From: Burkholderiales bacterium
Lineage (GTDB): Bacteria > Pseudomonadota > Gammaproteobacteria > Burkholderiales > JACQAP01
DNA: 64,000 nucleotides
Assembly (NCBI GenBank): GCA_035549715.1
Contig: DASZQJ010000160.1
Coordinates: forward strand, 22,688 to 86,687
Reading direction: 5' to 3'
The position numbers and the translations under genes are program-made. A model generated the notes under the pieces. The model did no database searches. It had not been told where the DNA came from and was given only the letters and a program-made list of their open reading frames with translations. How positions within the stretch are numbered: the first letter of the stretch is position 1; the number at the start of each line of letters is the position of its first letter. Positions 2,490-21,792 of this stretch are shown in pieces.

Positions 2490-3926
2490 ATGGCCGAAAC
2501 CGCGCAAAAGCCCGAGCTGCTGATCGTCGACGACGATCCCCTGATCACCGACACGCTGGATTTCGTCCTCGGCAAGGACTACGTGGTCCGCGTTGCCGAT
2601 TCCCGCGCCCAGGTCAAGAGCCTGCTGCGGCAGCTGGACAACCCGCCCGAACTGGCGCTGGTCGACCTTGGGCTGCCGCCGACGCCGCACCGCCCCGACG
2701 AGGGCTTCCGGCTGATCAGCGACCTGCTCGCCTACTCGCCCTCGATCAAGATCCTGGTGCTCTCGGGGCAGAGCGACGAGGCCAATGCCCGCTACGCCCG
2801 CACCCTCGGGGCCGTGGAATTCATCGCCAAGCCGGCGGAGCCCGAGGTGCTCAAGGGGCTGCTCGCCAAGGCGCGGCGCATGGCCGAGGTGGACCAGAAA
2901 TCGGCCCGGACGGACACCGGCATCATCGGCAGCGGCCCCGCGATCCAGAAGCTGCACGAGCAGATCCTGCAGTACGCGAACGCGCCGTTTCCCGTCCTGA
3001 TCGAGGGCGAGTCCGGCAGCGGCAAGGAGCTGGTGGCGCAATCCCTGCACCGCCAGGGTTCGCGCGCCAGCCGCCCTTACCTCGCGCTCAATTGCGCCGC
3101 CATCGCGCCCACGCTGGTCGAACCCACCCTGTTCGGCTACGTCAAGGGCGCCTTCACCGGCGCCACGAGTTCGCGTTCGGGTTATTTCGAGGATGCGCAC
3201 GACGGCACGCTGTTCCTCGACGAGATCGGCGAGCTGCCTCCGGAGCTGCAGGCCAAGCTGCTGCGCGTGCTGGAAAACGGCGAATACCAGCGGGTCGGGG
3301 AAACCCAGGGCCGCAAGTCCACGGCCCGCGTGATCGCGGCGACCAACCGCGACCTGCGCCAGGAGGTCCGGGCCGGCCGGTTCCGCGGCGACCTCTACCA
3401 CCGCCTGTCGGTGTTCTCGATCGCGGTGCCCCCGCTTCGCGAGCTGGCCGACGACAAAATCCGGCTCCTCGAGCACTATGCCGCCGTCTATTCCCAGCAA
3501 ACGGGCGTGAAGCCCTTCCAGCTCGACCGCAAGTCGCAGGAACTCTGGGGGCAATACGGATTTCCCGGCAACGTGCGGGAGCTCCGCAACATCGTCATCC
3601 GCCTCACCACCAAATACGCCGGCCAGGTCGTGAACAGCGAGCAGCTCCTGGCCGAATTCGACTGGGAGGACGTCTCGGCGGACAAGCCGGAGGCGGCGAC
3701 GCCGGGCGACTTCCGGTCCGCCGTGGAGGCGGCGAAAAAGCGGCTCCAGGCGCAGAAGGGCTTGAGCCTGGACGGCGCCCTGCGGGACATGGAGCGCAGC
3801 TACGTCGAAGCCGCGCTGGAAATCACCCACGGCAACCTCAGCCAGGCCGCCAAGCTGCTGGGCATCCATCGCACCACCCTGTACAGCCGCATGCAGAATT
3901 ACGCCGCCGCGGAGGAGGAGCAATAG
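2490..3926 (+). CDS. Sigma-54-dependent response regulator (REC + AAA+ EBP + Fis-type HTH), PrsR-like
   Basis: ORF 2415..3926 from internal M ([16 protein letters not shown]). Receiver with LVDLGLPP, Walker A GESGSGKE, sigma-54 contact loop GAFTGA, C-terminal [24 protein letters not shown]. Confidence 0.85.
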
Positions 3927-5348
3927 ATGTATTACGCATTCTTCGGACTGAACCAGCCTCCCTTCAAGATCACGCCCGACACCGAAGCCTTCTTCGAGGG
4001 CGGCAACCGCGGGGCAATCCTCGAGGCGCTGATCTACGCCATCACCCACGGCGAGGGCATCATCAAGGTGACCGGCGAGGTGGGCAGCGGCAAGACCATG
4101 CTGTGCCGGGTCCTGCAAACGCGGCTGCCGCAAAACGTCGAGAACGTCTACCTCGCCAATCCCAGCGTCTCGCCCGAGGAAATCCTCCACGCCATCGCCT
4201 TCGAGCTGCAGATCACCCTGCCCCGGGATGCCAGCCGACTGGAGGTCATGCATGCCCTGAATGCCTACCTGCTCGAGCGCCACGCGCAGAAAAAGCAGGT
4301 CGTGGTCTTCGTCGAGGAATCGCAGGGCATGCCGCTCGCTACCCTGGAGGAAATCCGGCTGCTCTCGAACCTCGAGACGCAGCAGCACAAGCTCCTCCAG
4401 ATCGTCCTGTTCGGCCAGCCCGAACTGGACGAAAACCTGCGCCAGCCGCAAATCCGGCAACTGCGCGAGCGCATCACCCACAGCTTCAACCTGGCGCCCC
4501 TGGATGAGCAGGATGTGAGGGCCTACTTAGCGTTCCGGCTCCGTGCGGCGGGGTATCACGGTCCAGACTTGTTCGGGCCGCGGGTGATTTCCTACATGAC
4601 GCGCGCCAGCGGTGGCTTGTCGCGGCGCATCAATCTGATTGCCGACAAGGCACTGCTGGCGGCCTTCGCCGAGGGCACCCACAACGTCAGCCTGGCGCAC
4701 GTGAAAGCCGCCGTGAGAGACAGCGAGTTCAGCGACGTGCCCATGCAAAAATCCCGTTCACCAATGGCTTACGCCCTGGTCGGACTGGCGATCGGGGGTG
4801 CCCTGGGCATTGCGGCCTTCGCCGCCTATCTCGGCTTTTCCGGGAATCGGCAGGCCGCCCCATCGGCGTCCGAAAGCGCTGCCCCGGCACAGGCCCCCCT
4901 GCCGGCGGCCTCCACGCCCGTCCGGCCGGCCGTGGCATCCGGGCCTCCGGTGGTCCAGGCCGCCGCACCGGCACCCGCGGGTCCGGCCGTTGCCGCCCTG
5001 GAGCTGCCGCCGGACCTGCTGGAACAGCGTTTGCTCGCGACCACGCAGTGGCTCGACCAGCAAAATGCCGGCGCGTACAGCATCCAGCTGCTCGGCTCGC
5101 CCGACGCAGAACTCCTAAGGGAGTATTTCAAAACCATCGCCAAATATCTTGAAATAGAAAAGGTTTATGTGTACCGTACGGTTGCAAATCAGCGTCCTTC
5201 GTTTACGGTTTTATACGGGACTTACGCTGATCGGTACGAGGTGACCCGCGTCCTGGAGAGCCTCCCGCCCGAAATGCGGGTCAACCGGCCTTACACTCGG
5301 ACGATTCAGGGGATACGCGCCGAGATCGCTTATCAGAACCGGTCGTGA
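3927..5348 (+). CDS. ExeA/GspA/MshM-like AAA ATPase with TM segment, Ala/Pro-rich linker and C-terminal SPOR-like domain
   Basis: MYYAFFGLNQPPFKITPD N-terminus and Walker A GEVGSGKT are typical of ExeA/MshM. TM segment AYALVGLAIGGALGIAAFAAYLGF. C-terminus YSIQLLGS...VYVYRTV...FTVLYGTYADRYEV resembles a SPOR/peptidoglycan-binding fold. Confidence 0.8.
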   Translation: MYYAFFGLNQPPFKITPDTEAFFEGGNRGAILEALIYAITHGEGIIKVTGEVGSGKTMLCRVLQTRLPQNVENVYLANPSVSPEEILHAIAFELQITLPRDASRLEVMHALNAYLLERHAQKKQVVVFVEESQGMPLATLEEIRLLSNLETQQHKLLQIVLFGQPELDENLRQPQIRQLRERITHSFNLAPLDEQDVRAYLAFRLRAAGYHGPDLFGPRVISYMTRASGGLSRRINLIADKALLAAFAEGTHNVSLAHVKAAVRDSEFSDVPMQKSRSPMAYALVGLAIGGALGIAAFAAYLGFSGNRQAAPSASESAAPAQAPLPAASTPVRPAVASGPPVVQAAAPAPAGPAVAALELPPDLLEQRLLATTQWLDQQNAGAYSIQLLGSPDAELLREYFKTIAKYLEIEKVYVYRTVANQRPSFTVLYGTYADRYEVTRVLESLPPEMRVNRPYTRTIQGIRAEIAYQNRS

Positions 5349-5505
5349 AGAGCGCCCCGCCGGCCTTGCGTGCCGGCAGCGGCAGGCTGGCAGCAACGAA
5401 CGAACTTCAGGCAGAGTGAGCATGGAAATTCGGGGGGGACAGGGGTCCGGGGTCGGGCTTGCCTTGCGGTCGGCCGGTCGCGACATTGACGCGTGCCGTC
5501 ACTTG

Positions 5506-20946: not shown

Positions 20947-20972
20947 AAAAGCCCGCGCAAGCGGGCTTTTTT
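20947..20972 (+). terminator. Rho-independent terminator after pilin paralog 1
   Basis: AAAAGCCCGCgcaaGCGGGCTTTTTT: 6-bp GC stem, 4-nt loop, T6 run. Confidence 0.8.
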
Positions 20973-21084
20973 GTTGCCCCTCCCCCGAACACACAGGAAA
21001 AAGGCCCAAGGCGGGATTGAAGCAATTACGGCGGGAAATGGGCTATGCTCCCGCCAGTTTTCGATCTTGCCAATGCCTGTGGCC

Positions 21085-21792
21085 ATGCGCCTGAGAACAA
21101 GAACAACAAGCGGCTTCACGCTGGTCGAAATCGCCGTGGTGCTGGTGGTGATCGGCCTGCTGCTCGGCGGGCTGCTGCGGGCCACGCAGCTCACCGTCGG
21201 CGCCCGGGTGCACGACCTCGCCGCCCAGCAGGATGCCGTGCGCACCGCCTACTACGGCTTCTACGAGCGCTACCGCGCCATCCCCGGCGACTACTCCCAG
21301 GCGGTCGCCAACATCAGGGGCGCCACCCGCAACGGCAACGGCAACGGCCGCATCGAAGCCGGCGCCACCCCCAATGAAACCATCCTCGAGTGGGAGCACC
21401 TTGCCCGCGCCGGCTACGTCAACGGCAGCTACACCTACGCGGACACCGAATCCGACGCCACCAGCCTGAAGAGCAAGTACGGCGCGTACGTGAAAATCGC
21501 CTTCGACGGCATCTACGGCGCCGGCACGGACACCAACCCCAGCACCCTGCGGCACAACATCAAGACCGGCCCGAACGTGCCGGTGGAGGTGCTGGCGGAG
21601 CTGGACCGCAAGATCGACGACGGCCGCCCCAATACCGGCAGCTTCCAGTTCTCCCGCTACGAGAGCAACGGCAGCGGCGCCCCCACCGACGGCAGCCCCA
21701 CCGCGCCGTCCTGCACCAGCGCACTGGACGCCGACGCGGTCTGGAACGCCAACAACGGCAGCAGCAACTGCGGCGGCGCAAGCCTGCTGTAG
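21085..21792 (+). CDS. Type IV major pilin-like protein, paralog 2
   Basis: MRLRTRTTSG/FTLVEIAVVLVVIGLLLGG. Roughly half the positions are identical to paralog 1 by eye. C-terminal C-x19-C ending NCGGASLL. The start may be 21073. Confidence 0.85.
   Translation: MRLRTRTTSGFTLVEIAVVLVVIGLLLGGLLRATQLTVGARVHDLAAQQDAVRTAYYGFYERYRAIPGDYSQAVANIRGATRNGNGNGRIEAGATPNETILEWEHLARAGYVNGSYTYADTESDATSLKSKYGAYVKIAFDGIYGAGTDTNPSTLRHNIKTGPNVPVEVLAELDRKIDDGRPNTGSFQFSRYESNGSGAPTDGSPTAPSCTSALDADAVWNANNGSSNCGGASLL

Follow-up and report, generated by a model that had tools for sequence, protein, structure and literature searches.

Background

Type IV filaments of the MSH class, with MSHA of Vibrio cholerae among them, are encoded in single loci that hold homologues of mshA, mshE and mshG as well as of mshL and mshM and keep the pilin gene somewhat apart, and the lack of a prepilin peptidase gene is regarded as a hallmark of these loci (PMC6668835). 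For the MshEN domain of the extension ATPase, a cyclic di-GMP (c-di-GMP) motif has been published as RLGxx(L/V/I)(L/V/I)xxG(L/V/I)(L/V/I)xxxxLxxxLxxQ (PMC5013675). As for the control of pilin genes, the best comparison is the PilS/PilR system, in which a kinase with six transmembrane (TM) segments senses PilA in the membrane, the regulator is of the NtrC type and a sigma-54 promoter is located at pilA (PMC6058289). Here we analyse a filament locus in a stretch of 64,000 nucleotides (nt), called the window below, on the 146,357-bp contig DASZQJ010000160.1 of an NCBI metagenome-assembled genome (MAG) labelled Burkholderiales bacterium. The locus encodes the proteins HWA14318.1-HWA14332.1, and its assembly genes are bracketed by the genes of a sigma-54 response regulator and a polytopic histidine kinase. 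A preliminary description made from the sequence alone had read the region as an MSHA-class locus with rearranged gene order, flanked by a pair like PrsR and PrsK, the sigma-54 regulator and polytopic kinase of XrtA/PEP-CTERM loci. On the whole, our analysis indicates that the region is probably a complete and vertically inherited MSH-like type IV filament machine together with a dedicated sigma-54 two-component system, while the membership of the pair in PrsR/PrsK does not stand.

Organization and conservation of the locus

According to the list of open reading frames (ORFs), the GC content at third codon positions (GC3) and independent gene calls on identical public contigs, which are all concordant, eleven tightly packed genes occupy 2490-16633 on the forward strand. 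Their junctions range from -4 to +25 nt, with the sole exception of about 157 nt ahead of the secretin gene. The kinase gene (16656-18395, reverse strand) is convergent with this operon across a gap of 22 nt, and two pilin paralogs follow at 20199-21792, so the gene content is as first described; the motifs quoted in that description, SRLTHDVKNLLQ included, are all present in the sequence too. Scanning about 55 ORFs of the whole 64-kb window with Pfam and NCBIfam returned housekeeping genes around the locus and no Peptidase_A24 (prepilin peptidase), PilT or exosortase domain, in agreement with the absences noted earlier.

The deposited names are generic, namely sigma-54 dependent transcriptional regulator, AAA family ATPase, secretin N-terminal domain-containing protein, TPR protein, GspE/PulE family protein, T2SS F family protein, ATP-binding protein, prepilin-type domain protein and several hypothetical proteins. 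The locus is therefore public, yet it carries no specific annotation or characterisation. A literature search on this combination of regulator and machine returned nothing specific and no describing paper, which bears out the initial remark that it is not known as a characterised system.

The arrangement is not an accident of one genome. Relatives of the 509-aa protein of the operon (see below) were found in at least 209 of 185,579 species genomes, and the loci of the best 80 of the 209 were compared by tblastn with the window proteins. All 80 are MAGs labelled Burkholderiales, Betaproteobacteria or close synonyms. The order in every sufficiently long locus is regulator, ExeA-like ATPase, secretin, TPR protein, extension ATPase, platform, the 509-, 206-, 165-, 534- and 246-aa proteins, kinase (reverse strand), in part of the loci an ABC-2 permease and a 248-aa protein (p248), one or more pilins, KefB (reverse strand) and KdsD/KdsC. 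This order is kept down to 35% identity of the 509-aa protein, whose identities range over 35-73%, and the 206- and 165-aa proteins are conserved in all loci. The 509-aa family itself has 509 members, every one named 'hypothetical'. Each locus gives one regulator match and one kinase match, and no further regulator or kinase was found in the locus for which independent gene calls and Pfam marks are available.

The kinase gives the same picture from the other side. Its family comprises at least 387 clusters at 50% identity in a profile search at E<=1e-30, and the 150 best relatives listed are, fragments aside, almost all full length. One relative near the bottom of these 150 (P0389) has the identical locus order and again lies beside the rpoN cluster. 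Since the same order recurs in all long loci and around this low-ranking kinase relative, the pairing of regulator, machine and kinase is fixed, and the two lie at the ends of the filament genes, where the preliminary description placed them.

Within the otherwise rigid locus there is a variable hotspot. In L004, L010, L032, L034 and L049, 2-6 kb of extra DNA separate the 246-aa pilin gene from that of the kinase, and in L047 such DNA precedes the 534-aa gene; L033-L038 and L066 are also cited for this hotspot. The number of downstream pilin paralogs varies from 1 to 4 per locus.

The assembly machine

The second gene of the operon (3927-5348) encodes an AAA_22 ATPase (93 bits) with one TM segment at residues 284-302 and a weak SPOR-like periplasmic domain at its C-terminus (18.1 bits in Pfam, below cutoff), and this combination identifies it as an ExeA/MshM-like ATPase; the JGI name is likewise 'ExeA'. 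The following gene (5506-7275) encodes a lipoprotein secretin with a signal peptide ending in LAFGGC and with the Pfam domains Secretin and Secretin_N_2. Among the NCBIfam families MshL is its top match (TIGR02519, 236.7 bits against a cutoff of 250.2), ahead of GspD (149.7 bits) and PilQ (103.8 bits); its best PDB matches are GspD. At the MshN/GspB position there is a bitopic protein (7272-8672) with a TM segment at residues 86-104, a Pro/Ala-rich linker and C-terminal repeats matched by Pfam TPR families, and its N-terminus, MSLLLQALQKA, is one that we take to resemble GspB.

The extension ATPase (8688-10394) belongs to the MshE/PilB/GspE family (T2SSE, 406 bits) and bears an N-terminal MshEN domain (PF05157, 61.4 bits; NF053729, 64.4 bits, above the cutoff of 38), a domain which is not exclusive to MSH systems. 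The published c-di-GMP motif is matched without deviation by its residues 9-32, RLGELLVQQGLITHDQLRIALTEQ, and in a relaxed form by residues 38-61, so that the motif is intact and the ATPase is a predicted c-di-GMP binder. Next to it lies the gene of a GspF/PilC/MshG-type inner-membrane platform (10407-11612), with two stretches of Pfam T2SSF (177 bits) and a GspF score of 313.8 bits against a cutoff of 424.

The next three proteins have no match in Pfam or NCBIfam. For the first of them, of 509 aa (11626-13155), an AlphaFold2 model of moderate confidence (mean pLDDT 66.6) contains a cytoplasmic PilM-like actin-fold domain, a long TM helix and a periplasmic C-terminal alpha/beta domain. The best PDB fold match is PilM of P. 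aeruginosa (5eou, E 7.6e-7, with TM-scores of only 0.33/0.45), and on this model the protein is predicted to be a PilM-PilN fusion of the GspL/MshI architecture. The second, of 206 aa (13152-13772), is bitopic with an N-terminal TM segment at residues 13-31 and stands at the PilO/GspM/MshJ position, and the third, of 165 aa (13769-14266), has a signal peptide, is a secreted periplasmic protein by prediction and stands at the PilP/MshK position; both labels are positional and topological only. No significant PDB match was found for the 206-aa protein, and profiles of both proteins gave nothing below E 0.01 against PDB sequences. When 18 members of the 206-aa family were each scanned with Pfam, the only PilO match had an E of 0.095. 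Thus topology and position agree with the PilO/GspM-like and small periplasmic proteins proposed for these genes, and a family or PDB match is missing for both.

The operon ends with two genes which had been described as pilin-like. The product of the last (15893-16633), of 246 aa, is indeed a canonical prepilin (SPKG|FTLVELA; Pfam N_methyl, TIGR02532; NCBI name 'type II secretion system protein') and a minor pilin. The product of the other (14292-15896), of 534 aa, has an N-terminal hydrophobic segment (TM 21-39) without Glu5 and no Pfam or NCBIfam match, and may be a large minor pilin or a tip protein. Across the loci its conservation is among the lowest (26-54% identity). The composition of these two genes is deviant: both have a GC content of 0.53, their GC3 is 0.54 for the 534-aa and 0.53 for the 246-aa gene while every other gene of the locus has 0.80-0.96, and the composition boundaries are the two gene ends (14292-16633). 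In the relatives, GC3 dips by 0-0.15 at most at the same genes. The deviation here against the slight dip elsewhere suggests a recently acquired two-gene replacement cassette. It is also at this place that other loci have their insertions of 2-6 kb.

Taken together, the single locus, the absence of a prepilin peptidase from the window, the homologues of mshA, mshE and mshG, together with those of mshL and mshM, and the pilin gene set apart fit the published traits of MSH loci (PMC6668835). An intact MshEN motif is a further likeness to the MSHA system (PMC5013675). Among the mandatory components, the MshM role would fall to the ExeA-like ATPase, and MshG and the MshA-type pilin are represented by the T2SSF platform and by the N_methyl prepilins at 20199 and 21085, all three being recognised by generic profiles only. 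The TPR protein would take the MshN role and the 509-aa fusion that of MshI. The secretin scores best to MshL. The class assignment in the preliminary description is supported in the sense of an MSH-like locus, including the rearranged order. In fact, the order here is M-L-N-E-G-I-J-K, while that of Vibrio is I-J-K-L-M-N-E-G; only two minor-pilin-like genes are present here, as against the set MshB/C/D/O/P/Q in Vibrio. The locus differs from MSHA also in an MshL score just under the cutoff, in J- and K-position proteins without detectable homology, in the sigma-54 regulator and kinase embedded in it, and in its host clade of uncultured Burkholderiales.

The same genes could be read as a divergent type II secretion system (T2SS), whose pilins would form a periplasmic pseudopilus pushing folded proteins through the secretin, with the two-component pair setting secretion capacity. 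Accessory proteins like ExeA and GspB are classically associated with T2SS, and the locus has both, an ExeA-like ATPase with a periplasmic domain of the peptidoglycan-binding type and a GspB-like bitopic partner, as in systems with GspA/GspB (ExeA/ExeB). The ATPase, platform and secretin score high to GspE, GspF and GspD, the secretin core is GspD-like down to its best PDB matches, the topology of the 509-aa fusion is GspL-like, and PGAP names use 'type II secretion system'. However, every Gsp equivalog score stays below its cutoff (GspD 149.7 against 351, GspE 506 against 630, GspF 313.8 against 424 and GspG 21 against 89), MshL exceeds GspD by 87 bits, and GspC, GspH/I/J and GspM were not detected in the Pfam and NCBIfam scans, in which GspK and GspL had no matches either. 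The pilins, moreover, are large (about 230 aa), end in a domain with a C-terminal Cys pair, reach no more than about 20 bits against GspG and come in 1-4 paralogs, and the main pilin gene forms a transcription unit of its own, with a terminator and a strong promoter. We consequently hold a secretion system to be unlikely.

The pilin genes and the sigma-54 promoter of pilA1

The major pilin candidate, PilA1 (20199-20921, forward strand), begins with MKRQQQG|FTLIEIAIVLVIIGLLLGG and is recognised by Pfam N_methyl (33.6 bits) and TIGR02532. Its N-terminus is almost invariant across the loci, and against solved pilins only the alpha-1 helix is matched. The paralog PilA2 (21085-21792, forward strand; N_methyl) is 47% identical to it, and the two have a C-terminal Cys pair in common, as well as the sequence G|FTL(I/V)EIA.

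A sigma-54 promoter of the -24/-12 type, TGGCACGGAACTCGCA (20144-20159, forward strand), precedes the ATG of pilA1 by 40 nt. Where the upstream sequence of related loci is long enough, its counterpart is found in every case (43 of 43), at a distance of 25-71 nt before the first pilin gene, and follows the pattern TGGCA(C/T)-N5-(T/C/A)NGC, apart from one locus where it begins with GGGCA. The background rate of the pattern is 0.006 per 100 nt. Among 156 matches over all loci, 40 are at pilin genes and no other gene has a recurrent site. A sigma-54-like site precedes the regulator gene in five related loci. In the window the pilA1 site is the only one in the locus, and the others are far off at 57545 and 58217. 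These two (57545-57559 and 58217-58231, forward strand) are perfect TGGCAC-N5-TTGC sites, and the first lies about 65 nt upstream of a 123-aa ORF (57625-57996) without Pfam match.

About 45 nt upstream of the promoter we read a site, AATCAAcccaTTG (20099-20111, forward strand), which we take to be like the IHF consensus; it lies in the inverted repeat AAATCAA-N4-TTGATTT (20098-20115), and many related loci have an AT-rich block at the matching position. Downstream of pilA1 there is an intrinsic terminator hairpin with a U-tract (20941-20976, forward strand). As its U-tract takes part in the stem, it escaped the consensus terminator scan, and folding of 20922-20985 confirmed the hairpin (minimum free energy -32.1 kcal/mol, z = -3.2). 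With its own sigma-54 promoter and this hairpin, pilA1 is a monocistronic sigma-54-dependent unit. It had been proposed that both paralogs lie behind the sigma-54 promoter; this applies to pilA1, whereas pilA2 is separated from it by the terminator, and upstream of pilA2 no convincing -24/-12 site was found, only a weak and unconserved GG-N10-GC match.

The regulator and the kinase

The first gene of the operon (2490-3926) encodes the sigma-54 enhancer-binding response regulator, HWA14318.1, in which a receiver domain, an AAA+ domain and a Fis-type helix-turn-helix (HTH) follow each other (Pfam Response_reg, Sigma54_activat, AAA_lid_14 and HTH_8). The motifs DDD...LVDLGLPP...S...K and GAFTGA and the Fis-type HTH are all seen in the sequence. 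In NCBIfam the top model is NtrC (TIGR01818, 366.1 bits), and PrsR (TIGR02915) follows with 343.3 bits; both scores are below cutoff, that of PrsR being 502.6.

The kinase, of 576 aa by the start in the independent gene calls, has 6-8 TM helices (at least six hydrophobic segments), a PAS/GAF-like domain, a DHp domain with the H-box THDVKNLLQ and a catalytic domain, as judged by the AlphaFold2 model and by Pfam, where HATPase_c is the only match and HisKA gives none. Compared with the PDB, the model returns only generic matches to DHp-CA kinases and PAS folds. Neither His378 of THDVKNLLQ nor the N and G boxes vary among the homologues, and the kinase is therefore predicted to be catalytically competent. 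Its membrane domain (residues 26-264) has low AlphaFold confidence (pLDDT 40-65) and is strongly conserved: among 23 homologues of 61-84% identity, H26, W27, H36, H55, W62-Q63-P64, N110, P112, H141, D184, N212, W235 and P237-R238 are invariant. So many invariant polar and aromatic residues in a membrane domain suggest a specific intramembrane ligand or partner.

PrsK (TIGR02916) is the only kinase model with E<1e-6, and the transmitter core is thus nearest to the PrsK type. The score is however 44.5 bits against a cutoff of 300, and the alignment is confined to residues 375-568, against positions 481-675 of the 679 in the model, leaving the sensor region unaligned. The name PrsK is absent among the homologues listed with a source name, PGAP uses neither PrsR nor PrsK, and the record of the regulator is generic. 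Considering the scores below cutoff, these names and a window without exosortase context, the assignment to PrsR and PrsK in the preliminary description fails. Two other genes of the locus also meet PEP-CTERM-locus models below cutoff, the ExeA-like ATPase with 217 bits against 324.5 (TIGR03015) and the TPR protein with 55 against 312 (PrsT).

Proposed regulation of the filament

We infer that this kinase and this regulator are partners, and that the dedicated pair most likely switches on the main pilin gene pilA1, because no sigma-54 activator other than this regulator was detected in the locus. In the model that we propose, the operon 2490-16633 would supply the regulator, a secretin-assembly pair formed by the ExeA/MshM-like ATPase and the TPR protein, the MshL-like secretin, a putative c-di-GMP-binding MshE-type ATPase, the GspF-type platform, the GspL/MshI-like PilM-PilN fusion, two small envelope proteins and two minor-pilin-like proteins. 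As in other MSH systems, prepilin processing would depend on a peptidase whose gene lies elsewhere. The convergent polytopic kinase would phosphorylate the regulator, which would then make sigma-54 RNA polymerase transcribe monocistronic pilA1 from its conserved -24/-12 promoter, probably assisted by IHF bending, and binding of c-di-GMP to the extension ATPase may further gate the extension of the filament.

Functionally the pair appears to resemble PilS/PilR of Pseudomonas aeruginosa and other bacteria with type IVa pili most. A six-TM kinase is met there and one with 6-8 helices here, the regulator is in both cases of the NtrC type with receiver, AAA+ and HTH domains, and a sigma-54 promoter stands at the major pilin gene (PMC6058289). 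One may speculate that, like PilS, the kinase uses its membrane domain to sense the pool of unassembled pilin. Unlike pilS and pilR, which form an operon of adjacent genes, the two genes here stand at either end of a 16-kb block and on opposite strands, and the kinase has no Pfam HisKA, carries the H-box THDVKN and is nearest to the PrsK model; no PilS or PilR model is among the listed NCBIfam and Pfam matches of the pair.

Several points weigh against a complete filament machine with its own dedicated pair. The MshL score misses its cutoff narrowly, and the ATPase, platform and secretin are best or well matched by T2SS models. Completeness of the machine is assumed, since for three to four structural proteins no family is detectable. 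Unlike those of typical cognate pairs, the genes of the regulator and the kinase lie on opposite strands and at a distance of 12.7 kb. Shared palindromes and 7-mers in the 200 nt upstream of the -24 element were compared over 43 loci as candidate enhancer motifs, and nothing exceeded shuffled sequences except the coding 3' end of p248. Finally, none of the 80 loci comes from an isolate, and no cultured host is among them.

The pair might instead control something else, for example the divergent unit of ABC-2 permease and p248 or the long operon, with pilA1 activated by a sigma-54 activator encoded elsewhere. Only 55 nt separate the kinase gene from the permease-p248 unit, the search upstream of pilA1 identified no regulator-binding motif, and the five loci with a sigma-54-like site before the regulator gene would agree with such a target. 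On the other hand, a subclade without ABC ATPase, permease and p248 retains the regulator, the kinase and the pilin promoter, the pilin site is the only sigma-54 site conserved in the loci, and the regulator remains the sole sigma-54 activator detected in the locus of the window, all of which make another target quite improbable.

That the two proteins are a true PrsR/PrsK pair, regulating exopolysaccharide or PEP-CTERM genes elsewhere with the filament genes as mere neighbours, we consider very improbable: it could appeal to the polytopic kinase and sigma-54 regulator found in both settings, to PrsR as second-best regulator model, to PrsK as sole kinase model with E<1e-6, to the DLGLPP motif of the receiver and to the PEP-CTERM-locus models that come top for the ExeA-like ATPase and the TPR protein, but these four scores are all far below cutoff, the sensor region does not align to PrsK, PGAP gives neither name, the window has no exosortase or PEP-CTERM context around the pair, the order of the 80 related loci (where exosortase was not searched) leaves no space for extra genes in most, and across the family the pair is inseparable from the filament genes.

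The reading of an MSH-like machine with its own sigma-54 pair may be carried further, to a form that we regard as doubtful. The kinase would be an independently evolved counterpart of PilS, in which a PrsK-type transmitter is joined to a new and highly conserved membrane domain of 6-8 helices (with invariant His, Trp, Gln, Pro and Asn). This domain would respond to unassembled pilin, or to some other cue in the membrane, and adjust the output of pilin via sigma-54. The filament clade would then be one with several protein families of unknown fold and, to date, only uncultured representatives, and the block would work in partnership with the ABC-2 exporter and p248 that bracket it, for example in the export of a glycan or matrix component along with the filament.

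Flanking genes and chromosomal neighbourhood

Immediately upstream of the regulator gene, and possibly associated with the locus, lies a gene of a DrrA/NodI-type ABC ATPase of the ABC-2 class (1679-2404, forward strand; Pfam ABC_tran, NCBIfam best drrA/NodI). The sequence ahead of the regulator exceeds 400 nt in 48 loci, and in 43 of them a match to this ATPase directly precedes it; about 36 of these are forward-strand orthologues of 54-77% identity, and the rest are matches of about 25% on the reverse strand. On the other side of the filament genes, divergent from the kinase gene, is an ABC-2-type permease (18451-19218, forward strand; Pfam ABC2_membrane 28.3 bits, ABC2_membrane_3 31.2 bits), followed by the gene of p248 (19226-19972, forward strand). 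This membrane-anchored protein is conserved at 49-72% identity across loci and has no Pfam or NCBIfam match; an N-terminal anchor is followed by a region that looks helical by sequence. In its family 2846 homologues are detected, all listed ones being unnamed and without Pfam domain. A search for distant relatives, which might reveal an ABC-2 operon contiguous elsewhere, returned close homologues only.

The orthologue of the ABC ATPase, the permease and p248 are jointly present or jointly absent wherever both ends of a locus are visible, and the subclade of L012, L013, L017, L022-L024 and L027 is without all three. The block of 16 kb from regulator to kinase between the ABC genes may either have split an ABC operon by insertion or be a filament that works as its functional partner.

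The region sits between mlaF/mlaE (140-1823, reverse strand) and the cluster kefB-kdsD-kdsC-lptC-lptA-lptB-rpoN-hpf-ptsN-hprK-rapZ (21796-31757). As it is lodged beside the rpoN cluster, the sigma-54-dependent pilin gene is about 6 kb from rpoN. The chromosomal position is also kept in L083 (1-7500), which surrounds a kinase relative ranking close to the end of the 150 listed. In addition, the interval 37534-42488 (reverse strand) encodes a c-di-GMP module, consisting of a REC-PAS-GAF-GGDEF-EAL protein, a single-domain response regulator and a CHASE8-HAMP-PAS histidine kinase. This module could feed the MshEN-domain ATPase.

Conclusions

The locus is a lineage-specific form of a familiar machine with several unclassified components; the preliminary description was right on the machine and on the fixed pairing with the regulator, and wrong on PrsR/PrsK membership. 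Nothing is overturned by it; that a sigma-54 two-component system controls a pilin gene is classical. What it adds is a regulatory pair built into the machine locus itself, with a clear predicted target in one conserved sigma-54 promoter. Four conserved proteins beyond the reach of Pfam and NCBIfam, namely the 509-, 206- and 165-aa proteins and p248, could seed new profiles for filament detection tools. Overall, MSH-like filaments are extended to a broad set of uncultured Burkholderiales, comprising at least 209 species-level genomes, many of them from surveys of the soil and freshwater type.

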